Assembly (NCBI GenBank): GCA_963845185.1
Contig: CAWJRG010000005.1
Coordinates: 480,001 to 544,000, forward strand
Source of the DNA: an uncultured bacterium
GTDB taxonomy: Bacteria > Oederibacteriota > PGYV01 > CAWJRG01
Length of the DNA stretch: 64,000 nucleotides
Direction: 5' to 3'
The translations under genes were made by a program, and so were the position numbers. Below the pieces are notes generated by a model that made no database searches, was not told where the DNA came from, and was given only the letters and a program-made list of their open reading frames with translations. Positions 27,620 to 61,556 of this stretch are shown in pieces (positions within the stretch are counted from its first letter, which is position 1; each line of letters begins with the position of its first letter).

Positions 27620-28072
27620 TTATAAGCTTATCTTGTATCTTTTTTCTTCCCTTAAAAGGTCGCGTTTTTTTATGTCCTCGCGGTGGTCGTACTCTCTCTT
27701 GCCTTTCGCGAGGGCAATCTCGACCTTGACCCTGCCACCTTTAAAATACATTGAGAGCGGCACGAGTGTCAAGCCCTTTTTATTCATCTTGCCAATGAGC
27801 CTGTTTATTTCGCTTTTGTGCAGCAGGAGTTTCCTGTCGCGCACCGGGTTGTGGTTGTTTATGTTTCCGTGGGAATATTGCGATATGTGGCAGTTTATAA
27901 GGTACGCCTCGCCCTTGATTATCCTGGCGAAACTGTCTTTCAGGTTTACTTTGCCGTCCCTTATTGACTTTACTTCCGTGCCCTGCAGGGCAATCCCCGC
28001 CTCAAGACTCTCGAGTATCTCAAAATTATGGAAAGCTTTCCTGTTTTTTGTTGCTGCTTTCTTGTCTTCCAT
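27620..28072 (-). CDS. smpB: SsrA-binding protein
   Basis: NRKAFHNF, EAGIALQGTEVKS, RKLLLH, GKREYDHRE. Confidence 0.98.
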   Translation of the reverse strand: MEDKKAATKNRKAFHNFEILESLEAGIALQGTEVKSIRDGKVNLKDSFARIIKGEAYLINCHISQYSHGNINNHNPVRDRKLLLHKSEINRLIGKMNKKGLTLVPLSMYFKGGRVKVEIALAKGKREYDHREDIKKRDLLREEKRYKISL

Positions 28073-31000: not shown

Positions 31001-34000
31001 GGGCTTGATGTCGGCGTCCATGTACCTGTTACTGTAAATGTCGGGCTTGAAGTTGGCGTCCATGTAGGCGTTGTAGAGAATGTAGGGCTGGACGTCGGCG
31101 TATGTGTCAGTGTCCATGTTTGAGTTGTTGTGAACGTCGGGCTGAAAGTTGGTGTCCATGTTCCTGTTACTGTAAATGTCGGGCTTGATGTCGGTGTCCA
31201 TGTTGGTGTATTTGTCAATGTCCATGTTGGTGAACTAGTCGGCGTATTTGTCGGTGTATTCGTAGGTGTATTCGTGGGCGTACATGTTGATGTATTCGTC
31301 GGCGTCCATGTCGGTGAACTGGTCGGTGTATTTGTCGGTGTATTCGTAGGTGTCCATGTCGGTGAACTCGTCGGTGTATTTGTAGGAGTATTTGTTGGCG
31401 TCCATGTCGGTGTGTTTGTCGGCGTATTTGTAGGTGTGCTCGTCGGCGTCCACGTCGGCGTGAATGTAGGCGTTGTTGTGGATGTTGGTGTCGTGCACAT
31501 CACTGTCTGCGAATATCCGCCATTCGGCACAGGGCATGGGTTTCCGTTTACCGCACTTATGTATGTTTCGCTCGGACCGCCCGATATTGCGCTGAATATT
31601 ATTATATCAAAATTCGGGTTGCTTGTATCGTTCCATGCTGTACCGTATGTCACTGATATTGTATTCGCTCCCAAAACTACTGCCCCTCCATTATTGCTTG
31701 TTGGTGTGCCCCCTGTTACTGTTACGCCTCCGGGTATTGTTATTACAAGGCTCGTTATCGGCCCTTTACTTGCCGCGTCCACATAATAACTGTATGATAC
31801 CGTGTCTCCGTCAACTGCAACTGTCGGCTGGATATATGCGTATGCGAATGCCGTTGCCGTGTTTGTAGGCGTTGCTGTCGGCGTCACTGTATTTGTCGGC
31901 GTCCATGTCCCTGTTATCGTGAATGTCGGGCTCGATGTCGGCGTATTTGTAGGTGTACTTGTCGGCGTGCTTGTGGCCGTATTCGTCGGTGAACTGGTCG
32001 GCGTATTTGTAGGCGTGCTCGTTGCAGTCCATGTTGGCGAACTGGTAGGCGTGAATGTCGGTGTATTTGTTGCTGAACTCGTCGGCGTCCACGTTGGTGT
32101 ACTTGTCGGCGATACTGTAGGCGTGCAGAAACCCGCAAGCACGTTGAAATTATTGACTACAAAATAACCCAGTGTTCCTGTTGTTGAATTTGCGGCAATA
32201 CCCACCCAGTATGTGGTATTCATGGCTATGGTCAGGGACGCAACCGGTATCCATGCAACCCCGTCGCTCGAATAATACCCTGCAAACATGGTACCAACCC
32301 TCTGCAGTCTTACATATCCTATGCCAGCGTTGTTATAAGTACCATTCCCGCTGCTTGTATTTGTATTAGCCGCGCCGGTCGTGGCCCTATGGATAAAATT
32401 ATATACCCCTGACCACTGCGCGCTTATGAAAGCAAAAGTGCTGTTTGTTTCAAGCGTTTCCCTCATCATAATCCCGGCCCTTGAGGAAGCTGCCAGGTTT
32501 GAAACACCATCTATGACCAGGGTCACATCCATGTCGCCCGAAACCGGCTGGTATATGTATCTTAACGAATCTGAAGTGCTGCCCACCATTGGGCTGCCGG
32601 CAGCCGTGATAGTCAGGGCTCCGCCTCCCTCTGTCTGCGATCCCGCCATGCCGGGAGTGCCTATGTCTGACGCGCCCCAAATGCCTGAATTAAACGAGCT
32701 GCCGCTGAACGTGTCGCTCTGCACGCATTGCGGGATTATGGGGGTATCTGTTATTGTAATTGTCGCTGTCGCCGTCAAAGTCCCTGTTATCGTGAAAGTC
32801 GGGCTTATCGTCCCTGTCCATGTCGGTGTATTTGTCGGAGTAAATGTCGGGCTTGATGTCCCTGTCCACGTCGGCGTGAATGTTGGGCTGTTTGTCCCTG
32901 TCCAAGTCGGAGTATTTGTCGGTGTCCACGTTGGTGTGTTTGTTATCGTCCATGTCGGCGTATTTGTCGGCGAATCCGTCGGCGTCCATGTCGGTGTCCA
33001 CGTCGGTGTACTCGTAGGCGTATTTGTCGGCGAATCCGTCGGCGTCCATGTCGGTGTCCACGTCGGTGTACTCGTAGGCGTATTTGTCGGCGAATCCGTC
33101 GGCGTCCATGTCGGTGTCCACGTCGGTGTACTCGTAGGCGTATTTGTCGGCGTGAATGTCGGGCTAGATGTCAGTGTCCATGTCGGTGTGTTTGTCGGCG
33201 TTACTGTAAACGTCGGTGTCACTACTGTCACTGACTGCGAATCCCCTGCCGGCGCAGTGCAGAAATACGTTCCATTTACCACGCAGGGAAACGTCTGAAC
33301 CCCAGACGGCAATATCGCGTTAAATGTTATTATGTCAAAATTCGGAGTGCTGGCATTGTTCCATTGCGGACTGTATGTTACAAGTATGTTATTTCCGGGA
33401 CGGGTTATGCTTCCTCCCATCTGGCTTGCGGGTGTGCCTAATATTGATACCGCTCCCGGTACTCCTATTAATACGCTCGTTATCGGCCCATCCCCTACTG
33501 CGTCAACGTAATAACTGTATGTTACCGTGTCTCCTGCCACTGCCTGGTTCGGCTGGATGTACGTGTATGCCAAAGGCGTTGATGTTGGCGTCGCAGTTAT
33601 GCTCGGCGTTGCTGTTGGTGTCCATGTCGCTGTGTTCGTTGGTGTCCATGTTGGTGAACTAGTCGGCGTCCATGTTGGCGTGTCTGTCGGACTCGATGTC
33701 GCTGTAAATGTAGGTGTAAATGTTGGTGTTGTTGTAGATGTGGGTGTTAATATTATTACTGTCTGCGAAGACCCATTGGGCACTGGGCAGAGATTTCCGT
33801 TTACAGCGCTTATGTATGTTTCCGAAGGCCCGCTCGATATTGCGCTGAATGTTATTATGTCGAAATTCGGGTCGCTATTATCGTTCCATCCTGCTCCGTA
33901 TGTCACTGTTATTGTATTTGCTCCCAAAACTACTGCCCCTCCATTATTGCTTGTTGGTGTACCACCTGTTACTGTCACGCCCCCTGGTATTGTTATTACA

Positions 34001-36993
34001 AGGCTTGTTATCGGCCCATCCCCTGCCGCGTCTACATAATAACTATATGATACCGTATCTCCTTCTACTGCCACTGTCGGCTGAATATACGCGTACGCGA
34101 ATGGCGTCGATGTGTTTGTCGGCGTCGCTGTCGGCGTCACTGTATTTGTCGGCGTCCATGTCCCCGTATTCGTCGGCGTCCACGTTAGCGTACCCGTCGG
34201 CGTATTTGTTGGTGAACCCGTGGGCGTCCATGTAGGCGTATTCGTCGGCGATATTGTCGCCGTGCAGAAACCCGCGAGCACGTTAAAATTATTTACAGCA
34301 AAAGCACCGAGCCCTGCTACTGTTGAATTTGAGGCAATGCCCACCCAGTATGTGGTGTTCATGGCTATGGTTACGGCCCCAGCCGGTATCCAGTTAACCC
34401 CGTTGCTCGAATAATACCCTCCAAATACATTCCCCACCCTCTGCAGTCTCACATAGCCTGTGCCTGTGAATGTGCCACTGCTTGTATTCACGTTGGCCGC
34501 GCCGGTCGTTGTCCGGCGTATAAAATTATATACCCCGATATGCTGTGCCGAGACGCAGGCGAACGTGCTGTTTGTTTCAAGCGATTCCCTCATCATAAGC
34601 CCAGCCTTTGCGTTATTTGCTACGCTTGAAATGCTGTCTACAAAAATGGTCACATCCATGTCGCCTGAAACCGGCTGGTATATATACCTGAAAGTATCGG
34701 AGTTGCCGCCTGTCAGGTTTGTGCCGCCGTCGGCCATGATTTGCAGAACTCCGCCTCCTTCCGTCTGCGACCCGGCCAAGCCTGCGCCTATGTCTGACGC
34801 GCCCCATATGCTTGAATTAAACGTACTGCCGCCGAACGTGTCGCTTTGCACGCATTGCGGGATTATGGGTGTATCTGTTACGGTGATTGTCTGTGTTGCA
34901 GTCAATGTTCCTGTTAGCGTAAATGTCGGGCTCGACGTTCCTGTCCAAGTAGGCGTGAATGTCGGGCTCGTTGTCGGTGTCCATGTCGGTGTATTCGTCG
35001 GTGTCCATGTTGTCGTATTCGTCGGCGTGTTTGTTGATGTGAATGTTGGGCTTGCTGTGGGAGTCCATGTCGGCGTAATGGTCTGGGTTACAGTGAATGT
35101 CGGCGTCACCACTGTCACTGACTGCGAATCCCCTGATGGCGCGCTGCAGAAATATGTGCCGTTTACCACTCCCGGAAATGTCTGTATCCCTGCCGGCAAT
35201 ATCGCGTTAAATGTTATTATGTCAAAATTCGGAGTGCTGCCGTTGCTCCATGGCTGGCTGTATGTTACAAGGATGGTGTTTCCGGGCCGCGTTATGCTTC
35301 CACCCATATTACTAATGGGAGTGCCTATTATTGATACCACTGCCGGTACTCCTATCAGCAGGGTCGTTATCGGCCCGTCTCCGACAGCGTCAACGTAATA
35401 ACTGTATGTTACCGTGTCTCCTGCCACTGCCTGGTTCGGCTGGATGTACGTATATACCAAAGGCGTTGATGTTGGCGTTGCAGTTATAGTCGGCGTTGCC
35501 GTATATGTCAATGTCCATGTGCCTGTTGCAGTAAATGTCGGGCTCGATGTCGTTGTATTTGTTGGTGTCCACGTTGGTGTGTTTGTCGGCGTAAACGTCG
35601 GACTGGATGTTGGTGTCCATGTAGGTGTAAATGTTGGGCTAGTCGTCGGTGTCCATGTCAGCGTGCTCGTAGGCGTCCATGTCGGTGTATGAGTCGGCGT
35701 CCATGTTTGAGTAACAGTAAGCGTCGGCGTAACTACTGTCACTGACTGAGAATATCCGTTTGGTGCAGAGCATAAATATGTGTTGTTTATCAGGCTTGTA
35801 TATGCTTGTGTCCCGGCATCAGATATTGCACTAAATATTATTATGTCAAAAGGCGGGTCGCTTTCGTTGTTCCATTGCGGGCTATATGATACATTTATAT
35901 TCCCTCCCAGCAAGCTTACGCTTCCGCCAATACTGCTTGTTGGAGTGTCTGGTATTGATACCCCTTCCGGAATTTCTATTATCAGGCTCGTTATTGGCCC
36001 ATCCCCTGCCGCGTTAACATAATAACTGTATGTTACTTTATCCCCTGCCACCGCCACTGTCGGCTGGATATACGCGTATGCCACAGGTGTTGACGTAGGT
36101 GTAAATGTCACGGTTATGGTTGCTGTCGGCGTATTAGTCGGCGTCCAAGTTGTAGTATGTGTTGGTGTCCATGTCGGCGTGTTAGTCAATGTCCATGTCG
36201 GTGTCCACGTCGGGCTGTATGTCGGAGTATTTGTAGGTGTCGGCGCGACTTGTAATTCGATTTCCAGCATTGCACAACGGGATGCAACAGTAGAATTATA
36301 AGTCACAGAATATGACCCTGCAGCGCCTGTTGTTATATCGTGCCCTGCTCCGCGTATGTAATTGGTTGTATTTTCAATATTCCAGCGTTCATTGGCCGTG
36401 GTCGTAAATACCATATCCCCGCCGCTTCTTTCAACAAATAGTCCTGAAATCCAGCTGTTGTTCTGTGCTGTATTGAATGTGACAGTCAATGTATTAGCAG
36501 TGGTAGCGCCTGCACCGGAATTGGCAACTCCGTTATTGCCAATTGAACTCACACCGTCATATTCTATGACGCCCATGCTAATCATATCGCCGGCGACACC
36601 TGAAGTGTTAACATTGATAGTGTATGTACCGTTTGGCGGGTTTTGCAAATACCATATTTCGCCTTCAAGGCCGAGAGTATTACCTAAATAAGCTGATGTT
36701 TTCGTTACACAGTTAAAAGCATAGCCGTCATACGAAACGCCGGATATTGACAACCACGTTCCTGGAGCTGAAGTTTCCCTGATGCCGCAGCTGAATATTA
36801 ACATCCTGTTTGTATTGCTGCTCGTGGCATAGGTAAAAGATGGGTCGGCTGTATTTGCGGTTGTGCTGTCCATGTTGTAATAACTTATGTCGGCAAAAAC
36901 AATGCCGGGCATAAATATAATGAAAAATAAGACCGCAAATGCACTTATTGTGAAATGGAATCCCGGCTTTTTGAATAAAAACTTTTTTTTCAC
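28072..36993 (-). CDS. Giant (2973 aa) secreted modular surface protein: Thr/Pro/Trp linkers, 7 Ig-like repeats, 2 ConA/DUF1349-like domains, C-terminal FlgD-Ig/T9SS-type sorting domain
   Basis: Signal peptide; seven AY.YIQP..AV.G..V.YSYYV.A...GPIT modules; two SDTF...[12 protein letters not shown] domains; C-terminus NFPNPF...IYD...WDG..D....NGVY...KIVVIK. Confidence 0.85.
32957..33152. repeat. Perfect 60-bp tandem repeat (~3.3 copies) within the giant gene
   Basis: Identical sequence at a 60-nt period, encoding [20 protein letters not shown]. Confidence 0.95.
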
Positions 36994-40464: not shown

Positions 40465-41586
40465 TTACTTCGTCCTTACGAAATTTTTCCCGCTCAACTG
40501 CCTGACCACGCCTTTTAATTCCAGCATTGTCATGATTCCGGCCAATTTAAATACATCCATATTACTTTCGATTGCGATATTGTCAATATGTTTTTTCTCA
40601 AACCCTATTGCCTCGACTATTTTTCTTTCGCTTTCATTCAGGTCAACAAGCTCCAGTTCCGCCTGTATATCCTCTTTCCTGTCGTCTTTTAAAAATATTT
40701 CGAACTCTTCCATGATATCTTTCGCGTTTTGCACAAGCTTTGCTCCCTGGGAAATCAGGCCGTTCGTCCCGACTGACTTTTCATAAAAAATACTCCCGGG
40801 TATGGCAAAGACTTCCCTGCCCTGCTCGAGCGCGCAGTCTGCGGTTATCAGTGCGCCGCTTCTTCTCCCGGCCTCGACAATAAGCACGCCGTCGGACAGG
40901 CCGCTTATAAGCCGGTTTCTGCGCGGAAAATTTTGTTTTAAAGGCAGCATTGCAAGCGGGAACTCCGAAATGACCAGGCCGTTCTTTATTATATTTTTTG
41001 TCATGTAATGTTTTTCAAGCGGATGAACCATGTTCATTCCAAACCCGAGCACAGCGATGGTGAAAAACCCGTTTTTTAACGCTTCCATGTGCGCCACGGA
41101 ATCTATGCCCCGCGCCATGCCGCTGACGATTATAAAATCACGCTTTGTTTCCTTCATTTCTTTCATGATTTTTTGCAGCGCCCTTTCGCCGTAATCGGTC
41201 GCTGCCCTGGTGCCGACAACTCCTATATTCAAGGCGGATTTTGGTATGGAATCGAAGGCGCCTGCGCAGTACAAGACAGGCGGCGGGTCAAATATTTTTT
41301 TCAGAAGCAGCGGGTAGTCCTCGTCGTATATGGTGATTATTTTTATATTTTTTTCTTCAGCTTCCTTTAACTCGTTTTCAAGCGAGTAATACTCGTCAAA
41401 ATTTTTTATGTATTTTATTATCTCGTCCCCTATGCCGTCGACAGCTGTTAATTCTTCGCAGGAAGCTCCAAACGCGTCTTTCGGGTTTTTAAACCTGCCT
41501 ATAAGCCTGTTCAGCCTCACGCTGCCGACGCCCGGCACCATGTTGAGCGCGATTAAGGCTTCTTTTTCAGTCATATTTTCATTCAT
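40465..41586 (-). CDS. dprA: DNA-processing protein DprA
   Basis: DPPPVLY, VGTR, VSGMARGID, FPRRNRLISGLS, GALITA. Confidence 0.96.
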   Translation of the reverse strand: MNENMTEKEALIALNMVPGVGSVRLNRLIGRFKNPKDAFGASCEELTAVDGIGDEIIKYIKNFDEYYSLENELKEAEEKNIKIITIYDEDYPLLLKKIFDPPPVLYCAGAFDSIPKSALNIGVVGTRAATDYGERALQKIMKEMKETKRDFIIVSGMARGIDSVAHMEALKNGFFTIAVLGFGMNMVHPLEKHYMTKNIIKNGLVISEFPLAMLPLKQNFPRRNRLISGLSDGVLIVEAGRRSGALITADCALEQGREVFAIPGSIFYEKSVGTNGLISQGAKLVQNAKDIMEEFEIFLKDDRKEDIQAELELVDLNESERKIVEAIGFEKKHIDNIAIESNMDVFKLAGIMTMLELKGVVRQLSGKNFVRTK

Positions 41587-41588
41587 GA

Positions 41589-41786
41589 GTGGAACCCCGC
41601 CGACACGAGTCGGCGGCTCCTTTAAAAACCACCGGAGGTTATCATAAGTTCCCTCCGGAAAGGTATAATTAATCCCCCACAAAATCGGGGGGATTTCTTT
41701 CTGGATTTATTTTCACTCGGTTTTGTTAATTTTATTCAGGAATCTAAAATTTGGATAATAATATATAGAATTTTTAATAATGTCAA
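41589..41786 (-). promoter_or_regulatory. dprA promoter and three-hairpin leader (IS200/IS605-end-like)
   Basis: TTGACA-N17-TATTAT (41786-41758); hairpins at 41671-41695, 41632-41658 and 41591-41620. Confidence 0.55.
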
Positions 41787-41827
41787 GTTTATCTTGCCGT
41801 CGATAGAAAAAAATTATTGGCTGATTT

Positions 41828-42598
41828 TTACCAGCCTTCTTTTTCATCGGGATTTGGCTTGTTGTTTTTTTCACCCAGTGAAAAATCAAAAACAATGCCG
41901 GCTCCGAAATATGGCCCGGAATAGTCAAGGTTTCCATTCTCGGTAACCGTCTCGTACCCCGTTTCATTATAATTAACTTCTGTGCTGCCTTTGGCTACCC
42001 TGTATCCGCCCTTCAAAGATATCGCGAATGACTTTAAAATCCACAGGTCTACGCCGCATTCTATATTGACGCCGAAGAAAAAAGGTTTCCAGTCGCGCGT
42101 GACTTCATATGCTTCCGTGCCGTCCTGATTATATAATTCTTCCTTAATATGGTTGTTGAAATAATAATAGGCGCCCGCGTCCGCGCCCAGGTACATGGCC
42201 ATAAAATATTTTCTCAGTCCTAATCCGCTGTAAAAAACCGAAAAATCCGAATCAACAGTGTAAAGCGCCTGGCCTGGCGACCAGTATGCAATCGTTTGCT
42301 TGTCGGGTAAACCCAGCCAGTAGTTCTTGAAGTACACGCCCCATTCGCCCGCGTTTTTGCTGTCCATCTTCATGACATAATTAATTTCCACAAAAGGGCC
42401 GGCGTTGAGTTTTGTGAATTGGGCTTTTAGGTCGTATCCCTTGAAATAAAGCTCATTTTCCTGCATTTCCTTGTTGTAATCCGTCAGGGCCGCATTGTTA
42501 TAACCGCTGAATATCTCCAGGCAATTTTTGTTTTCCGCGTAAAGGTTAAAAGAACATAATATGCAGAATAAAATAAAAAGTGTTGTGTGTTTTTTCAT
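41828..42598 (-). CDS. Hypothetical outer-membrane beta-barrel protein
   Basis: Signal peptide MKKHTT...; YSGPYFGAGIVFDF terminal strand. Confidence 0.65.
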   Translation of the reverse strand: MKKHTTLFILFCILCSFNLYAENKNCLEIFSGYNNAALTDYNKEMQENELYFKGYDLKAQFTKLNAGPFVEINYVMKMDSKNAGEWGVYFKNYWLGLPDKQTIAYWSPGQALYTVDSDFSVFYSGLGLRKYFMAMYLGADAGAYYYFNNHIKEELYNQDGTEAYEVTRDWKPFFFGVNIECGVDLWILKSFAISLKGGYRVAKGSTEVNYNETGYETVTENGNLDYSGPYFGAGIVFDFSLGEKNNKPNPDEKEGW

Positions 42599-42629
42599 TC
42601 TCCCCCTTTGCTCCCCGCTCAGCATGTCT

Positions 42630-44762
42630 TTACACAAAATTTATTTCTATTTGCGCGCCGTTGTTAATCAGCGTCGTATAACCTGCTTTTTCGCCGTTAA
42701 CCCGCAGTTCAAGCATCTTGCCTTTCATCTGGTCACGGTCTATCGGGTAGTACCTGAAAATGCTGGACAGCAATATTTGCTCGTCTTTGGCTTTTGTTTC
42801 TATATTCGCCCCGTTAATCAGGAATTCGTCTTCTGAAACTTTTTTGCCGTTCATGTAAATTTCAAAATTTTCGCTTTCTATCCCGTACAGCTTGCCGTTT
42901 ATGTACACTTCGATTTTTTTCTTCGCGGAATATTTTAATACATCCCTTATCCTGTAATAAACCGGGACGTTTTTAAACTCGACTTTATCCATGTTCCTGA
43001 TTTTATATTCCATCGAAACATCCATGCCGTTTACTTTAAGCTGGTAACTTTTCTGTTTCAAAACGACAGGTTCACCGCCGATTGTTATTATTATATCCCT
43101 TTCATTTGTGTCCCGGGCGGCAAAACCGCATTTAAGCAGGGCATCTTTAATTGTCTCTATCTTTTCCACGGATATTTCCGCCCTGTCAACGACAGGCTCA
43201 TTGATAGATATTTCCCTGCCAGCCAGAAACGCCTGCGGGTAAATTTCGGTTATTTTGCCGTTTATTTCGATTGTGGTGAAATATTCTTCAGGTATGATTG
43301 CCCTGATTGTGGCGGCCGCGTCCTCGCCGTCTTTTGTGCCTGTTATTTCTATTTTATCACCTTTTTTAATTTCATCTTCGAGCGTCTTTCCCGCGCCGTT
43401 GACATAAATCTTCGAATGCTCGCCCTTCCCGCCGCGCAGTATCTTGATCTCTTTATTAAACGTAAAAGTTATCGCGCCTCCCGGTTTGCCGTATAAATTT
43501 TTAAGTTCTATACCCCGCGCGATTACGGCGTCTATAACTTTTATCTTGCTTTCCATGTTTATAATGTAAGTTTTTTCGCCGTTGACATCCACGTCGACGA
43601 ACCCGAGCCCTCTTTTATAAAGCGCTGTTTCCAGAATACCGAGCGGGGTTATGCCTTCTGTTCCGGCAAGCGAATCGGGCAGGTTTACTATGTTCAGGAT
43701 GTTTTTGGGCAGCCTGCTTCCCACGCGCACTGCCGGCAAGCCAAGGTTTTCCGCCACTTTCTCGCGCAGGATTTCCAGCCCGCTGCCTCCGCCCACCATT
43801 ATTACTGCCTGCGGCTGTTTTAAGTTTAAATTAAAAATCCCGTCGGCAATTTCCCTTGCAAGCTCTTCGGTTTTTTCGCTTATGGCTTTTTTAAAATCCT
43901 CGTAAGCCACAAAAATTTTATTGTTGAAAATATCCTCGGTTTCAATGCCCCATTCCTTGTCGATAAACCGCTTTATCTTTTCGCCGTTTTTAAAGTCAAC
44001 AAGGAACTTATTGCATATTTCTTCTGTTATTTCATCGCCTGCCTTCGGAATCATCCCGTATGCCGTTATTTTATCCTTGTCGGTTATGGCTATATCCGAT
44101 GTGCCTGCGCCGACGTCGACAAGGGCCAGGTTCAGGAGCCTCATGTCTTCCGGTATGGTAACGTAAAGCGCTGCAATTGGTTCCAGGGTTATTGCCTCTA
44201 TTTCGAGCGAGCAGTTTTTCAGCACGCCAAGCAGGCTGTCAAAGACAATTTTCGGCAGGAAAGTGACTATTGTGTTTATATAAAATTTTTCTTTTGCAAT
44301 TTGCTGCAAGGGGTTTTTTATTGTCTGTCCGTCTATCATGTAAAACACCGGAGAAAAACCCACGCAGTAATAATCTGTTTTTTTCTTTTCAATAATGGCG
44401 GTGTGGGCGGCGCGCACGCTTTCAAGCTCAATATAAGACAAGTCTTCCCTGGTAATTTCCCCTTTTTTGTCCATCGTGGCTTCGGCAATTTCGGTGTGCA
44501 GATTTCTGCCGGCAAGTGCCGTGGTAACCTTGCTTATTGTAATATTGTTTCTTGCCTCAAGTTCTTTTTTTATCCTGCCAACTATATTGCTTACTTCCTC
44601 TATATTATGTATCTGCCCATCGAGCATTGCCCTGCTTTCATGCTCGCGGACCACTGCGTCTATTATGCAGACTTTCCCGTCCCTAATATCGCCCAGTATG
44701 CCTGCAACTTTTCTGGTTCCTATATCAAGCGCAAAAACCATTTTTCTCCCCTTTTCATGCAA
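42630..44762 (-). CDS. FtsA/PilM-like actin-family ATPase with C-terminal beta-grasp-like repeats
   Basis: ALDIGTRK, LEPIAA, VDVGAGTSD, VGGGS; repeated VNG.....(I/L)..GD.IE units. Confidence 0.85.
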   Translation of the reverse strand: MHEKGRKMVFALDIGTRKVAGILGDIRDGKVCIIDAVVREHESRAMLDGQIHNIEEVSNIVGRIKKELEARNNITISKVTTALAGRNLHTEIAEATMDKKGEITREDLSYIELESVRAAHTAIIEKKKTDYYCVGFSPVFYMIDGQTIKNPLQQIAKEKFYINTIVTFLPKIVFDSLLGVLKNCSLEIEAITLEPIAALYVTIPEDMRLLNLALVDVGAGTSDIAITDKDKITAYGMIPKAGDEITEEICNKFLVDFKNGEKIKRFIDKEWGIETEDIFNNKIFVAYEDFKKAISEKTEELAREIADGIFNLNLKQPQAVIMVGGGSGLEILREKVAENLGLPAVRVGSRLPKNILNIVNLPDSLAGTEGITPLGILETALYKRGLGFVDVDVNGEKTYIINMESKIKVIDAVIARGIELKNLYGKPGGAITFTFNKEIKILRGGKGEHSKIYVNGAGKTLEDEIKKGDKIEITGTKDGEDAAATIRAIIPEEYFTTIEINGKITEIYPQAFLAGREISINEPVVDRAEISVEKIETIKDALLKCGFAARDTNERDIIITIGGEPVVLKQKSYQLKVNGMDVSMEYKIRNMDKVEFKNVPVYYRIRDVLKYSAKKKIEVYINGKLYGIESENFEIYMNGKKVSEDEFLINGANIETKAKDEQILLSSIFRYYPIDRDQMKGKMLELRVNGEKAGYTTLINNGAQIEINFV

Positions 44763-44783
44763 GATCGGTCATGTGGTACCGGC

Positions 44784-45404
44784 TCATGCCCTAATTACCG
44801 AAAGCAGTACCTTGACTGACGGTATATCAGGCACTAAAAGCAGATACCCTTTTATTACTTCGTCGTTTGCCGCTGAAAACTGGGTCTCAACGCATAATAT
44901 ATTGTTTGAAAGCCCTTCCACTCCCTCGCCTATGGATGTCAAAATAGCAGAGGCTATGTCAAAAACCAGGTTCGGCACCGAAGGCAGCAGCAAAATACCC
45001 AGGAATTCATTTAAAGCATTTAAGTAAGCGCCTGCCAGTATATTTCCTGTTTCTTTAATCGCCGAACTTCCTATTTCCGAAAGGACTTTTGTAGTGCCTG
45101 ATTTTTTTTGCAGAAGCATGTCGGCAAGCGACAGCGCGCTTTCCCGCGTTAACAAAAGCACTATTTTTGCTGTTATATCTCCCAGCACATTCATCACAAT
45201 GCCGGCAACAAGGCTGTTTGCATCGCCTATAAGCCCTGAAATGTCGGTGAGTTTAATCACCTTGACCTCCGGGACTGTTATCATTATCTTTCTTTTTATA
45301 AGCTGGGACATCGCTGTTGCCGCATGCCCGGCTCCTATATTTCCAACCTCTTTTAGCGCGTCCACCTGAGCGTCTGTTAAGTTAAGCAAAATTTCGTCTG
45401 ACAT
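44784..45404 (-). CDS. cheC: CheC phosphatase (copy 2)
   Basis: DALKEVGNIGAGHAATA and SAIKETGNI (ExxN motifs). Confidence 0.93.
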   Translation of the reverse strand: MSDEILLNLTDAQVDALKEVGNIGAGHAATAMSQLIKRKIMITVPEVKVIKLTDISGLIGDANSLVAGIVMNVLGDITAKIVLLLTRESALSLADMLLQKKSGTTKVLSEIGSSAIKETGNILAGAYLNALNEFLGILLLPSVPNLVFDIASAILTSIGEGVEGLSNNILCVETQFSAANDEVIKGYLLLVPDIPSVKVLLSVIRA

Positions 45405-45460
45405 TTTTCTCCAATCGTTGTTATCGTTTTATATAACTGTTAGCGGCCGTTGAAACGGGA

Positions 45461-47407
45461 TTAAATCAACGCCGGCACATCCACTATAAGGCTTATTTTC
45501 CCGTCGCCCAGTATTGTAACTCCTGAAAAACCTCTGGCATATCTTAGAAATTCCCCGAGGCTTTTTATCGCGATTTCCTGCTGTCCCATGACCTCGTCTA
45601 TTTCCAGGGCTATCTTTTTGTCCCTGACTTCCACTATGACTATATTGACTATTTCTTTTTCTTTCCGTTCCTTTTTCAAAAGTTCCGCGAGGCTTATTAT
45701 AGGTATAACTTCGCTTCTCAATATTATCACGCGTTTTTCCTGTATTAATTTTATTTCGGCAGCCGGAATTTCAAGCGTTTCAGTTGTATGGATTACAGGA
45801 AGCGCATATATGTTGCCGCTCGATTTTATAAGCAGGGCTTGTATAATAGCAAGCGTTAAAGGCAATTTCAATGTAAATTTTGTTCCTTCGCCCGGAAAAT
45901 TTTCAATTTTAAAAGTCCCGCCAAAAGATTCCACTTTCGTTTTTACCACATCCACGCCCACACCCCTGCCTGACATTTTATCGGCCTTGTCAACGGTGGA
46001 AAAACCCGGCAATGCTATAAGGCTTATTGCCTCTTCATCGGTTAATGACTTTACCTTTTCTTCCGTCATTATGTTTTTTTCCAGTGCTTTTTTACGGACT
46101 TTTGAAACATCAATACCTCTGCCGTCGTCCGAGACTTCTATTAAAACAGAGTTTCTTTCCCTTCTCGCAGAAATCCTGATAAGGCCCTTTTTATTTTTTC
46201 CCAGGTTGGTGCGCGCTTCGGGCGGCTCAACGCCGTGGCCAACAGCATTCCTTATAAGGTGTATCATCGGCTCTGTTATTTCTTCAAGGAGAGTCCTGTC
46301 GATTTCAATATCGCCCCCTGTTATTTCAACCTCAATTTCTTTTCCCGCTTCCTGCGCCATGTCCCTTATCATTCTGGGATACCTTTCAAAAATATGGGAT
46401 ACGGGCAGCATCCTCACCTGCGTGACCTCAACCTGCAGTTCGTCTATTATCCTGTCAAGCTCGGTTGTTGTCTCTAAAAGCTGGTTGTATTTTTTTTCTT
46501 TGGATATCTGGTCAAGCCTTATTTTATTTATTACAAGCTCTCCGACAAGGTTCATCATGATGTCCAGTTTGTCGATATTTACCCTGACGCTTTGCGAAGC
46601 CGCTGCTTCTTTTTTTCCCTTATCTTTCGCCTTATCCTCCGTATCTTTTATACTGGTGGCAACGGCCGGGCTTTCTTTCACTTCATCAACCGCGACTTTT
46701 TCGATCTCGGCTATTTTTAAAAGGATTTTTTCCACATCTTCCCGGGCAATTTGAGATATAAAAACAAGAAAAAAAGAATTGTCAAAATTTCCTTCCTCAA
46801 TGTCCTTTGCGGGTGGGCTTGATTTGATTATTTCACCTTTCTCGGATAAATTTCTGAACACCATAAAAGCCCTTACATTTTTGAAAACGCAGCCTTTTGC
46901 TATATTTACTTTTACTTTGTATATTTTTAAATTTTGAGCCTGCGCTTCTTTAATGACGTTTTCTTCAACTTCAATGTCTATTTCTGCAGCTTTATTTTCT
47001 TCATTTTTTTTTATTGCTTCGGCTTCGTTCGAAAGCATGTTTTTGATGTCTTTTATTATATCCTTGTAATCGTCCGTAGTATCCATATTCTGACGTAATA
47101 TGCTTTCTATAAATTTATCCAGCGTATCCACGCTTTTAAACAGTAAATTTATTACGGAATCATCCATGGCCATTTTTCCGTCCCTTATCCTGTCCATGAC
47201 TTCTTCAAGCATATGTGTAAACTCCGCCAGCCTGTCGTAACCCATGGTGGCAGCCATGCCTTTTAACGTGTGGGATGAGCGGAAAAGTTCGTTTAAGGGC
47301 GTAATGTCGCTGATGTTTTTTTCAAGCACGAGCAGGGCATTATTCATGTTTTTTATGTGGTCTTTTGCTTCCTCTATGAAAATATCCTTGTAATTTTCGA
47401 CGTCCAT
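45461..47407 (-). CDS. cheA: Chemotaxis histidine kinase
   Basis: HPt FRSSHTLKG, P2 domain, HLIRNAVGHG, DDGRG, GRGVG, CheW-like C-terminus. Confidence 0.98.
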   Translation of the reverse strand: MDVENYKDIFIEEAKDHIKNMNNALLVLEKNISDITPLNELFRSSHTLKGMAATMGYDRLAEFTHMLEEVMDRIRDGKMAMDDSVINLLFKSVDTLDKFIESILRQNMDTTDDYKDIIKDIKNMLSNEAEAIKKNEENKAAEIDIEVEENVIKEAQAQNLKIYKVKVNIAKGCVFKNVRAFMVFRNLSEKGEIIKSSPPAKDIEEGNFDNSFFLVFISQIAREDVEKILLKIAEIEKVAVDEVKESPAVATSIKDTEDKAKDKGKKEAAASQSVRVNIDKLDIMMNLVGELVINKIRLDQISKEKKYNQLLETTTELDRIIDELQVEVTQVRMLPVSHIFERYPRMIRDMAQEAGKEIEVEITGGDIEIDRTLLEEITEPMIHLIRNAVGHGVEPPEARTNLGKNKKGLIRISARRERNSVLIEVSDDGRGIDVSKVRKKALEKNIMTEEKVKSLTDEEAISLIALPGFSTVDKADKMSGRGVGVDVVKTKVESFGGTFKIENFPGEGTKFTLKLPLTLAIIQALLIKSSGNIYALPVIHTTETLEIPAAEIKLIQEKRVIILRSEVIPIISLAELLKKERKEKEIVNIVIVEVRDKKIALEIDEVMGQQEIAIKSLGEFLRYARGFSGVTILGDGKISLIVDVPALI

Positions 47408-47416
47408 TTGTACCCT

Positions 47417-48469
47417 CTATCTTTTCTCTATGGCGTCAATTATGGCTTCGGTTACTTTGTCGACAGAAACAACCACGTCCACTATTCCTTTATCAACGGC
47501 AGCTTTGGGCATGCCGTAAATAACCGAAGTTTCCTTGTCCTGCGCTATTATGATTCCATTTTTTTCTTTTACCTTTTCAAGGCCGGCTGCCCCGTCTTTT
47601 CCCATGCCTGTCAGGACGACGCCTATTATCCTGCCCTTAAAATTTTCCGCCACCGAAAAAAAAGTCATGTCCGCCGACGGCCTTACCCCAGACCTGAACG
47701 GTTTCTGGTTTAAGTCTATGGAATACATGTTGTTTCCGTTTTCTTTTATTTCCATATGGTAATTGCCGGGTGCAAGGTATGCCATGCCTGTTTTTATCAC
47801 GTCGTCCTGCGCCGCTTCTTTCACGGTTATTATCGACTGGTCGTTAAGTCTGTCGGCCAGTGTTTTTGTAAATCCGGGCGACATATGTTGTACTATTAAA
47901 AAACTGGCAGGAATATCGCGTGGTATGCGCGGCACAATATCGCTTAATGCTTTTGGACCGCCTGTTGACGCCGCGATTACAACCATTATATCCTGTTCTA
48001 TTTCATGTTTTTTTTCATACTTTTTCTTTTCTATATTCGCAGGGGTTATGAATACGAGCTTTGAAGGGTCGACCATTTTTGCGGTTTTTATTTTATCAAG
48101 AAGTTCGCCTTGGATTTTTTTTATGTCTATTGATATTTCGCCGGATGGTTTGCAGACAAAATCAACAGCGCCGTATTCCAGCGCCTGCAGGGTTATTTCC
48201 GCTCCCTTGGGGGTATAAGCCGAAACCATGATCACGGGCGTCGGCGCTTCACTCATTATATAGCCGAGCGTCTGAAGGCCGTTAAGCCTGGGCATTTCAA
48301 CATCGAGGGTAATAACGTCCGGCTTAAGTTCCCGTAATTTTTTCAGCGCCTCGTTGCCGTCTTTTGCAGTGCCTATGACTTCGATTTCCTTGTTTTCTTC
48401 AAGCATCTGCGATATTACCTTGCGCATAAAAGATGAATCGTCAACAACAAGGACTTTTATCATATCCAT
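47417..48469 (-). CDS. cheB: Chemotaxis methylesterase (REC + CheB)
   Basis: ASTGGP, QHMS, TGMGKDGA. Confidence 0.98.
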   Translation of the reverse strand: MDMIKVLVVDDSSFMRKVISQMLEENKEIEVIGTAKDGNEALKKLRELKPDVITLDVEMPRLNGLQTLGYIMSEAPTPVIMVSAYTPKGAEITLQALEYGAVDFVCKPSGEISIDIKKIQGELLDKIKTAKMVDPSKLVFITPANIEKKKYEKKHEIEQDIMVVIAASTGGPKALSDIVPRIPRDIPASFLIVQHMSPGFTKTLADRLNDQSIITVKEAAQDDVIKTGMAYLAPGNYHMEIKENGNNMYSIDLNQKPFRSGVRPSADMTFFSVAENFKGRIIGVVLTGMGKDGAAGLEKVKEKNGIIIAQDKETSVIYGMPKAAVDKGIVDVVVSVDKVTEAIIDAIEKR

Positions 48470-48475
48470 GTATTG

Positions 48476-58823: not shown

Positions 58824-58824
58824 T

Positions 58825-60021
58825 TTACTTTTGAGTCTTTACAACATCGCCGATTTTTATCGGATCTTTTTGCTTAATAACGATGCCCACCGAACTTTTC
58901 TTCATAGAATTAAGAACGACAACCTTGCCCATCTCGTCATAAAAATCATTGTTTTCTTGGTCTTGACTTTTCCTGTATACGGTTAATTTTTCTCCAGGCA
59001 ACAAGCCCTCGTCAAGGCCTTTATCCATATAAACCAAATTTTTATTATTTATTAATTCATTATTTGATGAAACTTTAATAATAAACGCTTCTATATCTAG
59101 ATTTTTTTTCCTGATTTTTCCAGTGAGTTTATTGTAATATTCTTTCAAATCCTTTCTAAATTTTATTTTCAGATTGTTGCGTATGGGTTCGTAACTTTTT
59201 TTAATTTTTACTTTATACACGTTTGCCTGATTATTTTCAGCCCTATCAATTACTTTTGCAACGCCGACAATATTTATCAATTTGCCAAGTGGGGCATCGG
59301 TAAAAGGATCGTTAATATCCTCACCGTCCTTATATATTATAAACTCGCTTCCACTTTTGGACGCCCTCCCTACAGAAATGTTTATATATGCTAGATCCTC
59401 CTGTGACATTAGCTCTTCTCCATTCATTGAATAAATTAAGCCGTCTTCCTTGAAATTATCGCTGATAAAGCCTGCCCTTTCAACCATGATATAGCCGGCT
59501 CTTTCAATTTTTCCTTTTCCTTCCGCCTCAAGGACTATGACTCCGCCGCCGCCTTCCTCCTCAGGCTGTTCAACCGAAAGCATTTCTTCTTTTTCCGGCG
59601 ATATTTCTTGAATTGGTTTCTTGTTGGTTATATATTGCTCCAGCTTTTCTGGTTCAACTTCTCCTGGGGACAATATAATTATGCCTTCTCCTTCGCCTTC
59701 ATTTTCCGTATTTTTCTCAACTATAGCAGGTGTTGCTTCGACAACTGGAGTGCTGACAGTTATAATTACTGTAGCTCCAACGGTTGATTCCGCTTGCTGG
59801 TTTGTTGATATTGCGGTGGGAGTTAAAGCAGATTTTACTTCTGCCTTTTTATCTTTTGCATTTACCGTAGTAGTTTGTTCAGGTTGCACAACAGCTTTAT
59901 TACTATTTGTAGCAATCCCCGTATCGATAAAATCGCTGTCCTGACCATAAATATTTTCACTAAAATACATAAAAATAAAACAAAGGAAAGGAATAGAAAA
60001 AACTTTAAAATATTTTTTCAT
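58825..60021 (-). CDS. Exported protein with low-complexity linker and two FlgT-C/TsaP-C-like beta domains
   Basis: Signal peptide; YINISVG....GSEFIIYK...DPFT...LG and YMDKG..EGL.PG..LTVYR units. Confidence 0.55.
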   Translation of the reverse strand: MKKYFKVFSIPFLCFIFMYFSENIYGQDSDFIDTGIATNSNKAVVQPEQTTTVNAKDKKAEVKSALTPTAISTNQQAESTVGATVIITVSTPVVEATPAIVEKNTENEGEGEGIIILSPGEVEPEKLEQYITNKKPIQEISPEKEEMLSVEQPEEEGGGGVIVLEAEGKGKIERAGYIMVERAGFISDNFKEDGLIYSMNGEELMSQEDLAYINISVGRASKSGSEFIIYKDGEDINDPFTDAPLGKLINIVGVAKVIDRAENNQANVYKVKIKKSYEPIRNNLKIKFRKDLKEYYNKLTGKIRKKNLDIEAFIIKVSSNNELINNKNLVYMDKGLDEGLLPGEKLTVYRKSQDQENNDFYDEMGKVVVLNSMKKSSVGIVIKQKDPIKIGDVVKTQK

Positions 60022-60030
60022 TTATATTCC

Positions 60031-60426
60031 TCAATAAAATGTTTTTAATTCATTCAGCCTGTTTTTAACCTTTTCGGCATACTTGCTGTCCGGGTATTTA
60101 TCTAAAAATTCCTTATATGCTTCTTTTGTAGCCCTTATATCCATTGATGCATCGAGGGTTTTTGCCCGGAGATAATATACCATGTCCAGCATATTTGAAT
60201 TATCGTATGTATCGATGAATTTGTCTATAAGTTCAAAAGACCTTTTATATTTACCTACAAAACTGCAATAAGACGCGTTAAAAAAAAGTATTTTTTCTTT
60301 TTGTTCCTCTTGTTTGATATTTTTGTCGGTATAATTCTCAATAGCTTTGCTTACCGATTCTGCCCCCGTCACAACATAAAGTACTATAGCTATTAAAATT
60401 ACTGCAATTACTAATAATTGTTTCAC
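60031..60426 (-). CDS. Small membrane-anchored TPR (BamD/CpoB-like) protein
   Basis: N-terminal TM; YKEFLDKYPDSKYAEK. Confidence 0.6.
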   Translation of the reverse strand: MKQLLVIAVILIAIVLYVVTGAESVSKAIENYTDKNIKQEEQKEKILFFNASYCSFVGKYKRSFELIDKFIDTYDNSNMLDMVYYLRAKTLDASMDIRATKEAYKEFLDKYPDSKYAEKVKNRLNELKTFY

Positions 60427-60470
60427 TTTTTTACCTATCCTTTTTTAAGGAATATTTATTATTATGATTA

Positions 60471-60499
60471 ATTGTAGCATTTTTAAAATATTTTGTCAA
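60471..60499 (-). promoter_or_regulatory. Sigma70 promoter of the chemosensory operon
   Basis: TTGACA-N17-TACAAT with extended TG. Confidence 0.75.
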
Positions 60500-60869
60500 T
60501 TTTTAAAAGTCTACTGTAATTTTGCTGGTTTTTCTCATTTTTCGGATTTTTTAGTTTAATTAATTAAGAAATCCCTGTTAGTATATGTTATTTCCTTATT
60601 TTAGTATTTGTCTGCCAACTTTGGCAAATTTTGATTCTTCATTACAAATTATATATATTCCTTAACTATTGGTTTTTATCATGCAATTGCTAGCCGCGTA
60701 TTATCACCCAAGCAAGCTAATCTTTTTACCTAAAAACAAATTGCCGCTTAAAATCAAAACTTGAGGTTTGTTATGTGGCTCAATTTTGTATTTTTACTCA
60801 TTAAAAAATCAACTTTTGTTTTAATAATCTTTTCTGTATTAAAGAGAATAAAATCCGAGGAATAAAATC

Positions 60870-60899
60870 TTGACAAACATTATATTTTATTGTTAGAAT
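60870..60899 (+). promoter_or_regulatory. Sigma70 promoter of the divergent sugar operon
   Basis: TTGACA-N18-TAGAAT with extended TG. Confidence 0.7.
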
Positions 60900-60929
60900 A
60901 CCTAAAATTCATTTTCGCGGAGGAAAACA

Positions 60930-61556
60930 GTGAAAAATAATGCATTAATAAGGTTGTTTACTATATTATTGTTAATAACGTTTTTGTTAATAGGCTGCGG
61001 TAATAAAGGCGCCCAATCCTCAAGAACATTAAATGGTTTTATAAATAGTTTTGAAACCCTGCCTTCAGATTCAGCCATAGGTGATTTCGACCTCGAGACA
61101 AACGGATATGTCAATTTAGAGCAGTCTAAAAAATACGCTACCCAGGGCAAATCTTCATGCAAGGCGGTATTTTCAGTGCCAGTTGATTTTGTTTCCACAA
61201 CGCAGGTCGCAAAAATGCAAAGTTGGATCGCCGGCATAACAATGAGCATAAATACTCTTTCCAAGCTTCCTGTTACAGACTGGTCTTTGTTTAAAAAATT
61301 TTCCGTTGATATTAGCAATCCCGATAATGTATCAAAAGATTTCTTTATCAAACTAACGGATATGCAGGGTAAAGAATATATCGCACCTCCTTTCCAACTT
61401 AAGGCAGGTAGAAACAAACTCGAAATAACACTTGAGGATGTTAAGAATGCTAGGCTTGATATTGCAAATATGGTTGCCTTTGAGCTTTATATGGATACTA
61501 AAACCGACCCAAAAGATATCACACTTTACATAGATAACATACATTTAGTGCCTTAA
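60930..61556 (+). CDS. Lipoprotein with probable carbohydrate-binding jelly-roll domain
   Basis: Lipobox LIGC; DWS.F..F..DI.NP and LYIDNIHL motifs. Confidence 0.6.
   Translation: MKNNALIRLFTILLLITFLLIGCGNKGAQSSRTLNGFINSFETLPSDSAIGDFDLETNGYVNLEQSKKYATQGKSSCKAVFSVPVDFVSTTQVAKMQSWIAGITMSINTLSKLPVTDWSLFKKFSVDISNPDNVSKDFFIKLTDMQGKEYIAPPFQLKAGRNKLEITLEDVKNARLDIANMVAFELYMDTKTDPKDITLYIDNIHLVP

Follow-up and report, generated by a model that had tools for sequence, protein, structure and literature searches.

We analyzed a 64,000-nucleotide stretch of the genome of an uncultured bacterium of the phylum Oederibacteriota (assembly GCA_963845185.1, contig CAWJRG010000005.1, positions 480,001 to 544,000 of the forward strand, or G000:C5:480001-544000 in our numbering; hereafter the window) and describe in it a 19-gene chemosensory cluster in which a P-II protein, two cytoplasmic TPR proteins and a CheW protein with an MshEN-type extension are encoded together with a chemotaxis core. 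With a chance that we put a little above even, this cluster is the main motility-control pathway of the lineage, combining an F1-type core with an unusual input module and acting, most likely, on a flagellar-type motor without a filament. We favor this reading because the core is F1-like, its CheA is the only one in the genome, both CheY proteins are single-domain, a second receptor carries a probable periplasmic domain, a motor gene set is present, and the N-terminus of FliM is of the type expected for a CheY target.

A 19-gene cluster with an F1-like chemotaxis core

The genome (G000) is a 3.5-Mb assembly of 11 contigs and is 99.4% complete. An earlier annotation of the window, made by a model from the DNA letters (the first-pass annotation), had described 19 co-oriented genes with gaps of at most about 60 bp behind a sigma-70 promoter. 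All 19 open reading frames (ORFs) are present on the minus strand, from 60426 down to 41828 in ORF coordinates, and are numbered here g01 to g19 in that direction (Table 1). The intergenic distances computed from these coordinates range from -23 to +59 bp, with the widest gaps at g05/g06 (59 bp) and between the genes for CheA and CheC2 (56 bp). The promoter stands at the level of consensus, the site at 60499-60471 being the top minus-strand sigma-70 match within 41000-60999. Because 92 sigma-70 consensus matches were observed in this interval against 51 expected from shuffles, the match by itself is no proof; taken together, the promoter-like site in front and the terminator-like hairpin behind suggest a single transcription unit.

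Domains were assigned with Pfam, using calls above the family cut-off unless marked otherwise, and with NCBIfam as a second profile library. The core comprises a methyl-accepting chemotaxis protein (MCP), CheW, CheA, two CheY, CheB, CheR, two CheC and CheD. CheC and CheD are thus encoded alongside CheA, CheW, CheY, CheB and CheR, the combination by which we tested for the F1 class, and all of these proteins match their Pfam families above cut-off. In its account of this class, PMC10746217 gives CheC together with CheD and receptors of 44-heptad (44H) length as F1 features, 44H receptors being also cognate to F9. The MCP of the cluster, g12, has 159 residues after the hairpin tip, or about 22 heptads per arm, which fits the 44H length by residue count as distinct from a heptad-class hidden Markov model (HMM); it carries four methylation-consensus sites. 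A second MCP of the genome likewise fits about 22 heptads per arm, with 153 residues when the count begins at the first residue of the tip motif.

CheA is the sole CheA of the genome, and a tblastn search found no second copy of CheA, CheW, CheR, CheC, CheD, the extended CheW (g06) or g02 elsewhere in it. The best NCBIfam match of CheA is the haloarchaeal CheA (506 bits versus a cut-off of 950) and its best match in the PDB is CheA of Thermotoga maritima, while the best NCBIfam matches of CheC and CheD are of the Thermotogales type, all below the equivalog cut-offs. Both response regulators are proteins of 121 amino acids (aa) that consist of a receiver (REC) domain only, and CheB is a standard REC-methylesterase. 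Judged by sequence, the core is F1-like, of the Bacillus/Thermotoga/archaeal type.

Conservation of the accessory genes across the phylum

The phylum sample comprised 99 species genomes, and 21 window proteins were mapped onto each of 39 che loci taken from genomes other than G000. In 36 of these 39 loci the che cluster includes P-II: 18 of 21 from the same taxonomic order as the window, all 14 from family f17 of another order, the single locus of family f22 and all three of family f11. The 18 loci from the same taxonomic order have P-II between the gene for the 729-aa TPR protein (g07, TPR729) and cheY1. Fourteen loci of the order keep the complete arrangement from cheR to cheA, at 41-88% identity, and two further genomes of the order gave no CheA match. 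All 14 f17 loci read cheR-TPR-CheW'-TPR-P-II-cheY-cheC-cheD-cheW-cheY-cheB(-cheA-cheC), where CheW' denotes the extended CheW; they have no MCP gene and mostly no g18. The f22 locus agrees up to the end of its contig. The three f11 loci, which run TsaP-like-cheR-TPR-CheW'-P-II-cheY and onwards, keep the MCP gene and g18 and have no TPR729.

The gene for the 392-aa TPR protein (g05, TPR392) is syntenic phylum-wide, and homologues of g02 are found upstream of cheR in f11 too. g18 follows CheC2 in 16 loci of the same taxonomic order, two of f11 and one of f17. The HD-GYP gene g03 is present in 13 loci of the same order and absent from L090, L094 and the other families, and g01 was recovered in 12 of the 21 loci of the order at a coverage of at least 80%. 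In family f6, the cluster starts at cheY1. Two P-II loci without che genes (L098 and L099) provide a contrast.

One locus of the same taxonomic order (L123, G017:C36:1-20000) has lost the TPR729 and P-II genes together, and two genus-mates keep both. This joint loss amounts to a natural deletion that is useful for inferring that TPR729 and P-II work as a pair.

The first-pass annotation proposed to test whether its accessory genes are conserved with the che core, and this is the case for the two cytoplasmic TPR proteins, the MshEN-type CheW, P-II and the TsaP-like protein. Its statement that no che system with such a gene set is known to have been described agrees with our literature searches, which found no description of one. 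The idea of a new chemosensory system therefore stands for this conserved and, per those searches, undescribed accessory set, and went too far in presenting the system as receptor-independent and non-flagellar.

The P-II protein and its TPR neighbors

g08 matches the P-II domain PF00543 at 87.9 bits (cut-off 25) and scores below the cut-offs of the NCBIfam GlnB/GlnK equivalogs (104 versus 202 and 99 versus 181 bits). Its closest PDB match, 2eg1 from Aquifex, is about 50% identical. Among the che-linked P-II proteins, all 30 aligned orthologues share G35, G37, the GDGKIF loop and the C-terminal RxRTGE without exception; Q39 and K40 hardly vary, and position 58 is K or R (30-36 orthologues). The residues G35, G37, GDGKIF and R101/R103, numbered after Escherichia coli GlnB, are nucleotide-binding positions of P-II.

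Four other P-II copies are present in the genome. Two of them, on contig C10, are separated by about 20 bp, a third lies about 2 kb from them and a fourth about 110 kb. A P-II search across genome contigs returned, among the 80 matches listed, 79 ordinary glnB/glnK-type loci of other phyla and one orthologue (L001). In a quick tree, 33 che-linked P-II proteins lay on one side of a branch with a support of 28, and 91 of the 92 other P-II rows grouped apart with a support of 90 in the Shimodaira-Hasegawa-like approximate likelihood ratio test (SH-aLRT), the remaining row being a long branch at the root of the drawing.

About 95 positions of TPR729, including some in its C-terminal tail, are identical in all 30 sequences compared, and a hydropathy scan flagged no hydrophobic segment in either TPR392 or TPR729. 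A predicted complex of TPR729 and P-II, with one copy of each rather than the P-II trimer, scored 0.02 against a mark of 0.32, which speaks neither for nor against an interaction. The f11 loci keep P-II without TPR729; TPR729 is therefore not the sole partner of P-II, and this also counts among the points against our reading gathered below. A 666-aa ORF in an f11 locus (L119) that appeared to fuse TPR, CheW and P-II was rejected, as the P-II domain alone is in frame and the stop codon of CheW' overlaps the P-II start.

A CheW protein with an MshEN-type extension

The Pfam MshEN model (PF05157) does not match the N-terminal 66 residues of g06 even at E<=10, and the only Pfam hit there is a sub-threshold DUF4388. 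The NCBIfam model NF053729, for an MshE-related c-di-GMP-binding domain (c-di-GMP, cyclic diguanylate), matches residues 12-63 with 55.7 bits against a cut-off of 38. In addition, a profile built from 26 orthologous N-extensions matches the PDB chains of PilF GSPII-B, PilB and MshE with E values from 3e-26 to 1e-10. On the PilB encoded in the window itself, PF05157 falls at residues 57-141 and not on the N-terminal hairpins, which suggests that it describes a different portion of the MshEN domain. An hhalign comparison of the extension profile with the first 160 residues of this PilB, whose Pfam MshEN match lies at 57-141, gave a probability of 12%, too low to be informative.

Motif I of the g06 extension keeps L2, G3, G10, L17, L21 and Q24 and begins with Ser, not Arg or Lys. 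Motif II keeps L2, G3, L17 and L21 and ends with Ile or Met in place of Gln. The two motifs are separated by 7 residues in g06, and most relatives have a spacer of 5. As stated in a passage of PMC11731258, the first residue of an MshEN motif need not be Arg.

A word-based search retrieved 20 proteins with the extension, the one of the window included, and all 20 carry a CheW domain. In a profile search of 1.84 billion representatives, 32 proteins among the best 150 matches were scanned, a set made up of the single-stretch matches and the majority of the short ones (317 aa at most); 4 of these carried CheW, and beyond the top 150 there were 1837 further matches at E<=1e-10. MshEN fusions to CheA, CheX, REC and HD-GYP are already listed in PMC5013675, in a passage that does not name CheW as a partner. 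The text of a CheW-domain survey contains no mention of MshEN, T2SSE, TPR or c-di-GMP, and our literature searches found no description of a CheW with a domain of the c-di-GMP-receptor type. Binding of c-di-GMP by the extended CheW is plausible. Genes for c-di-GMP signaling are present in the genome, with 10 GGDEF matches, 6 further HD-GYP loci and a PilZ gene in the flagellar operon.

A flagellar-type motor as the probable output

The absence of flagellar genes from the window, reported in the first-pass annotation, is correct for the ORFs scanned; the genome carries such genes on contig C9. The first locus there (C9:250001-310000) encodes FlgB/C, FliE-K, FlgD/E, MotAB, FliL/M/N(Y), FliO-R and FlhB/A/F/G, together with a PilZ protein, a sigma-28-like factor, FapA and, as its first gene, an MCP. 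A second locus (C9:386001-406000) encodes FlgF/G/A/H/I/J, FlgN and FlgK. By gene content, the genome encodes a full set for flagellar rotor, stator, export apparatus, rod and hook. FliN is FliY-like, and the N-terminus of FliM reads MPDDILSDSELNALL, which we take to resemble the peptide of FliM that binds phosphorylated CheY (CheY-P).

Several proteins of this set were observed in passing. FlgE has 647 aa, and two FliK-like proteins have 802 and 877 aa. The PilZ domain is encoded by a stand-alone 125-aa gene after flhF-flhG (C9:288978-289355), which suggests control of the motor by c-di-GMP.

Apart from g12, the genome has two MCP genes. One encodes a protein with two hydrophobic segments about 130 residues apart, a spacing that fits a periplasmic domain, and the other is the gene that heads the flagellar operon. 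Because one receptor has a probable periplasmic domain, sensing is not limited to internal state, and the earlier suggestion that the array reads internal state instead of external ligands is not sustained. Nor is the suggestion of a non-flagellar role as the default: the sole CheA, the F1 hallmarks, the single-domain CheY proteins, the motor genes and the CheY-binding-type motif of FliM all speak against it. As to whether the genome holds flagellar or type IV pilus genes, which the first-pass annotation had proposed to check, the flagellar loci of C9 and genes for PilT-TPR and PilB/GspE-type ATPases are present, and the filament genes for flagellin, FliD and FliS were not found.

The missing filament is shared by relatives. 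Flagellin_N, Flagellin_C, FliS and FliD were likewise not found in the near-complete genomes G019, G036 and G027. Of the 99 genomes of the phylum sample, 69 have FlhA, 13 have Flagellin_N and 12 have both, so that 57 of the 69 FlhA-positive genomes are without Flagellin_N. In those 12 genomes the flagellin genes lie on the contig of the lower-scoring FlhA, be it a second copy or the only one, and we take the flagellin-bearing contigs as a separate, ordinary flagellar set. The che/P-II cluster is found in families where FlhA is common; because kin are not independent, this family-level tracking of the cluster with a filament-less motor is weak support. A 2026 preprint (PMC13277936) names FCPU426 as one of the lineages in which the loss of ancestral flagellar genes is greatest.

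Proposed mechanism

The gene content suggests that internal state may be fed directly into motility control. Under this model, the extended CheW would join the receptor-kinase lattice through its CheW domain, and coupling would change when its N-terminal bundle binds c-di-GMP, a pool that the HD-GYP enzyme of the operon could trim locally. A P-II trimer would report ATP/ADP and possibly 2-oxoglutarate, acting through TPR729 or the extended CheW, with the TPR proteins as scaffolds. CheY-P from the pathway would act on the flagellar-type motor. The net effect would be a kinase output, and hence a motility behavior, for which second-messenger level and metabolic state act as gates alongside the receptors.

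A more committed form of this model treats the lattice as a metabolic integrator, in which a P-II trimer docked through TPR729 and the c-di-GMP-loaded CheW would set the gain of the kinase in response to ATP/ADP/2-oxoglutarate and second-messenger level. The pathway would then steer an organelle other than an ordinary flagellum, namely a rotary motor that has a rod, L/P rings, a hook and FlgK and lacks a filament, and maybe a PilT-TPR retraction motor as well. We regard this full form as rather unlikely.

Several findings weigh against our reading of the cluster. A search of the genome in which the positive controls matched detected none of Flagellin_N, Flagellin_C, FliS and FliD (FlgL was not searched), and an HMM built from 4 flagellins of the phylum gave a best E of 0.3 against all six-frame ORFs of the genome. 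Motor and CheA can be separated: family f13 (FlhA in 4 of 5 genomes, CheA in 0 of 5) and the genomes G027 and G030 have the motor without CheA, and G003 and G077, both good genomes, have the cluster but no FlhA match. Parts related to pili head the operon, a TsaP-like gene here and a PilT-TPR gene in f17 and f11. On the input side, MshEN motif I starts with Ser, motif II is without its terminal Gln and, in this taxonomic order, often without its central Gly, and the C-terminal MshEN subdomain is absent from g06; according to PMC11731258, PilF GSPII-A, with one degenerate motif, fails to bind c-di-GMP. The joint branch of the che-linked P-II proteins is poorly supported in what is a quick tree only. 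Lastly, these P-II proteins have Phe, Tyr, Val or Leu, mostly Phe or Tyr, in place of R38, and Tyr51 is absent. We take R38 and the modifiable Tyr51 to be T-loop residues of the enterobacterial GlnB/GlnK mode of regulation, and not family-wide ones.

Type IV pili as a possible alternative output

The pathway might instead chiefly steer type IV pili, in extension and retraction or in adhesion, with CheY-P or the TPR/P-II module acting on a PilT-TPR protein and the TsaP-like protein placed at the secretin; both organelles may also be addressed. The case begins with g02, the N-terminal half of which is predicted to be disordered, with a long linker rich in Thr, Glu, Ala and Pro, and the remainder of which (about residues 178-398) was modeled with a predicted local distance difference test score (pLDDT) of about 88. 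Foldseek places this part closest to TsaP bound to PilQ (6ve2_O, E 5.8e-7, template modeling score 0.62 on the target). Weaker matches are to flagellar structures, namely FlgT (3w1e, E 6.7e-3) and a Vibrio LPHT-ring entry, and the Pfam FlgT_C match is sub-threshold (E 0.008), which lessens the weight of the TsaP match for pili. TsaP has an N-terminal peptidoglycan-binding LysM domain and FlgT-like domains; no LysM was found in g02 by Pfam at E<=10. An N-terminal leader of g02 is seen by eye, and the hydropathy scan flagged no segment.

In sister families, the first gene of the che block (L108:9-2105 in f17 and L117:1941-4244 in f11) encodes a PilT-type ATPase joined to a long TPR region, and weak homologues of g01 and g02 come next. 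The genome studied here keeps an orthologue of this PilT-TPR protein that is 43% identical, but its gene (C1:301775-304048) is unlinked to the operon, as in this taxonomic order generally. The genome also has 8 matches to T2SSE-family ATPases, and the CheW extension is of a type seen on pilus ATPases. Because of the PilT-TPR genes in sister families, the TsaP-like fold and the 8 T2SSE matches, control of pili stays a serious rival or a second output, to which the missing flagellin, FliD and FliS genes add. The core itself argues otherwise. A CheA of the Pil-Chp type has several Hpt domains and a C-terminal receiver, whereas the CheA of the cluster has one Hpt, a P2 domain and no REC. The CheY-binding-type N-terminus of FliM, the FliY-like FliN and the MCP gene at the head of the flagellar operon likewise point to a flagellar switch. 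On balance, we think it unlikely that pili are the chief output, although this explanation carries more weight with us than the other alternatives below.

Accessory genes as possible passengers

It is improbable, in our judgment, that the core is an ordinary F1 system and the accessory genes mere passengers of an old operon, whose products act elsewhere, for instance in nitrogen metabolism or in assembly of the envelope. Such an explanation would fit a P-II that is about 50% identical to an ordinary GlnB, TPR matches that are generic, an HD-GYP gene missing from two loci of the same taxonomic order and from other families, and a core that persists without adjacent P-II in G017 and f6. PMC10746217 also describes F1 operons as having no fixed gene order. 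Set against this, the order cheR-TPR-CheW'-TPR-P-II-cheY1 has been kept at 31-66% protein identity over at least four family-level lineages, and stop and start codons overlap at TPR729/P-II here and at CheW'/P-II in L119. The genome has four other copies of P-II, the accessory set includes a CheW protein, and TPR729 has the invariant positions noted above.

Very improbable, finally, is a pathway of the 'alternative cellular function' (ACF) kind, with c-di-GMP turnover, adhesion or polarity as its output as in Myxococcus Dif or Pseudomonas Wsp: the HD-GYP gene in the operon, the MCP without a sensor domain, the flagellin gene not found and the TPR gene right after cheR, which recalls the CheR-TPR fusions of ACF clusters, are outweighed by the lack in the cluster of any multidomain response regulator, the ACF hallmark in PMC3447774, by the full adaptation set of CheB, CheR, CheC and CheD, by the status of CheA as the only one in a genome that keeps MotAB, FliG, FliM and FliN, and by an HD-GYP gene that is not part of the ancestral block.

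Features of the cluster and its surroundings

Coordinates and the basis of each assignment are collected in Table 1. The domain calls of the first-pass annotation were all confirmed but for g19, called an outer-membrane barrel: it has no family match in Pfam or NCBIfam, its predicted model has a mean pLDDT of 46, and the hydropathy scan flagged no N-terminal segment. As g19 was, moreover, found by tblastn in just 2 of the 21 loci of the same taxonomic order, its membership in the che system is uncertain. Look-alike clusters of g18 in the Atlas are commonest in Bacillota and Thermotogota.

Table 1. Genes and transcription signals of the chemosensory cluster, listed in the direction of transcription (positions in the window; aa, amino acids)
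Feature	Coordinates	Strand	Basis
Sigma-70-type promoter-like site	60471..60499	-	TTGACA-17-TACAAT, TG upstream of -10, 11/12; consensus match only
g01, membrane-anchored small TPR protein, YfiO/BamD-like, 131 aa	60031..60426	-	Pfam YfiO 34.5 bits; NCBIfam BamD sub-threshold; hydrophobic segment 4-22
g02, apparently secreted, disordered linker and TsaP/FlgT-like C-terminal domain, 398 aa	58825..60021	-	Model and Foldseek
g03, membrane-anchored HD-GYP protein, 475 aa	57396..58823	-	Pfam HD_5 127 bits (HD_5/HD); HD and GYP motifs readable; hydrophobic segments at 12-48
g04, CheR	56581..57399	-	Pfam CheR_N and CheR
g05, cytoplasmic TPR protein (TPR392), 392 aa, 9 bp after cheR	55393..56571	-	Pfam TPR families; no hydrophobic segment in hydropathy scan
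g06, MshEN_N-type four-helix domain (about 9-63) and CheW (67-199), 200 aa	54731..55333	-	Pfam CheW; NF053729; PDB profile matches
g07, cytoplasmic TPR protein (TPR729), 729 aa	52513..54702	-	Pfam TPR; stop overlaps P-II start (ATGA)
g08, P-II (GlnB/K family), che-linked subfamily	52166..52516	-	Pfam P-II 87.9 bits; PDB 2eg1 E 1.8e-28
g09, CheY1, single REC domain	51765..52130	-	Pfam; 70-84% identity in full-length loci of the same taxonomic order
g10, CheC1	51139..51762	-	Pfam CheC; best NCBIfam Thermotogales CheC, below cut-off
g11, CheD	50650..51132	-	Pfam CheD; best NCBIfam Thermotoga-type CheD, below cut-off
g12, MCP without periplasmic domain	49337..50650	-	Pfam MCPsignal; two membrane segments 11 residues apart
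g13, CheW	48819..49334	-	Pfam CheW
g14, CheY2, single REC domain	48476..48841	-	Pfam REC
g15, CheB	47417..48469	-	Pfam REC and CheB_methylest
g16, CheA	45461..47407	-	Pfam Hpt-P2-H-kinase_dim-HATPase_c-CheW; sole CheA of genome
g17, CheC2	44784..45404	-	Pfam CheC
g18, FtsA/PilM-like actin-fold protein with long C-terminal region, 710 aa	42630..44762	-	Pfam FtsA; PilM_2 just under cut-off; NCBIfam ftsA below cut-off
g19, apparently secreted beta-rich protein, 269 aa	41828..42637	-	N-terminal hydrophobic leader by eye; long predicted beta-hairpins
Terminator-like hairpin followed by T-run	41819..41836	-	Overlaps g19 stop codon; direct reading of sequence
Second, separate promoter-like site	41758..41786	-	Precedes dprA; consensus match

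Between g19 and dprA, a GC-rich multi-hairpin stretch (41560-41720, minus strand) lies directly before the start of dprA, and its translation gives short matches at nine further sites of the genome; the listed start of the dprA ORF (41682) is probably too far upstream. Further along the minus strand, a 2973-aa ORF at 28072-36993 lies in a region of raised G+C (48-51% versus about 42%) and has no Pfam match in its first or last 1000 residues, and a transfer-messenger RNA gene is found at 27159-27498 (Rfam RF00023, 190 bits). Two further signaling genes are encoded on the same strand at 2873-5206 and 8744-10432. One is for a 777-aa protein with an anti-sigma-type kinase domain (HATPase_c_2), HAMP and a SpoIIE phosphatase, and the other for a PilB/GspE-type ATPase with a Pfam MshEN domain. 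The plus strand carries an IS21-type pair at 16213-18533, consisting of a transposase (rve and Mu-transposase C-terminal domains) and an IstB-like ATPase.

Implications

P-II proteins are the most widespread sensors of metabolic status, and chemotaxis arrays are the best-understood signaling machines of bacteria. A conserved linkage between the two was nowhere described in the literature that our searches covered. Should P-II or c-di-GMP act on the array, it would constitute a direct route from energy and carbon-nitrogen state, and from lifestyle signaling, to taxis. The partner motor, which keeps stators, switch and chemotaxis without flagellin, FliD or FliS, raises the question of what a filament-less motor does in a free-living and probably cellulose-degrading lineage.

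Comparison with known systems

The Dif pathway of Myxococcus xanthus, which controls exopolysaccharide and is not known to have a CheB/CheR adaptation pair in its cluster, resembles the present cluster in its short-loop MCP without a periplasmic sensor, its CheC-like protein and a proposed link of pili to the chemosensory core. What sets the present case apart is its full adaptation set, together with a flagellar switch partner. The CheR-TPR fusions WspC and FrzF share with the cluster a TPR module that is genetically tied to CheR. In the description of PMC3447774, the TPRs of such fusions are short (often 2 repeats), occur in clusters with multidomain response regulators and mark ACF clusters; here the 392-aa TPR protein is unfused and has its own gene, which starts 9 bp after cheR, and the regulators are simple CheY proteins.

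With TsaP, the ring protein associated with the pilus secretin, and with FlgT of the Vibrio flagellar H-ring, g02 shares the beta-rich fold of its C-terminal part, strongly with the former and weakly with the latter, and it departs from both in having no detected LysM, in its long disordered linker and in the location of its gene inside a che operon. Compared with the MshEN/GSPII domains of Vibrio cholerae MshE (5htl) and Thermus thermophilus PilF GSPII-B (8pdk), the extension of g06 has the same two tandem 24-residue helical-hairpin motifs and keeps L2, G3, the hydrophobic core positions and Gln24 of motif I; it is unlike them in that the N-terminal four-helix subdomain stands alone and is fused to CheW. 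Canonical GlnB/GlnK proteins, as in E. coli and Aquifex (2eg1), have in common with the che-linked P-II a length of 112-116 aa and the conserved GDGKIF, Q39, K58 (K/R) and RxRTGE. In the che-linked group, R38 is replaced, there is no Tyr51, the T-loop is conserved within the group, and the gene is always found between a CheW or TPR gene and cheY, not beside amtB or glnA.

The closest comparison is with the F1 systems of Bacillus subtilis, T. maritima and archaea. We know of no described F1 operon with P-II, and literature searches did not retrieve one. The likeness extends over CheA with its Hpt-P2-P3-P4-P5 architecture, CheW, single-domain CheY, CheB, CheR, CheC and CheD, a receptor whose residue count fits the 44H length and, in the genome here, a switch protein of the FliY type. 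The cluster differs from these systems in its partner motor gene set without flagellin, in having two CheY, two CheC and a TsaP-like gene upstream, and in the four extra conserved genes between cheR and cheY1, which encode the two TPR proteins, the MshEN-type CheW and P-II.

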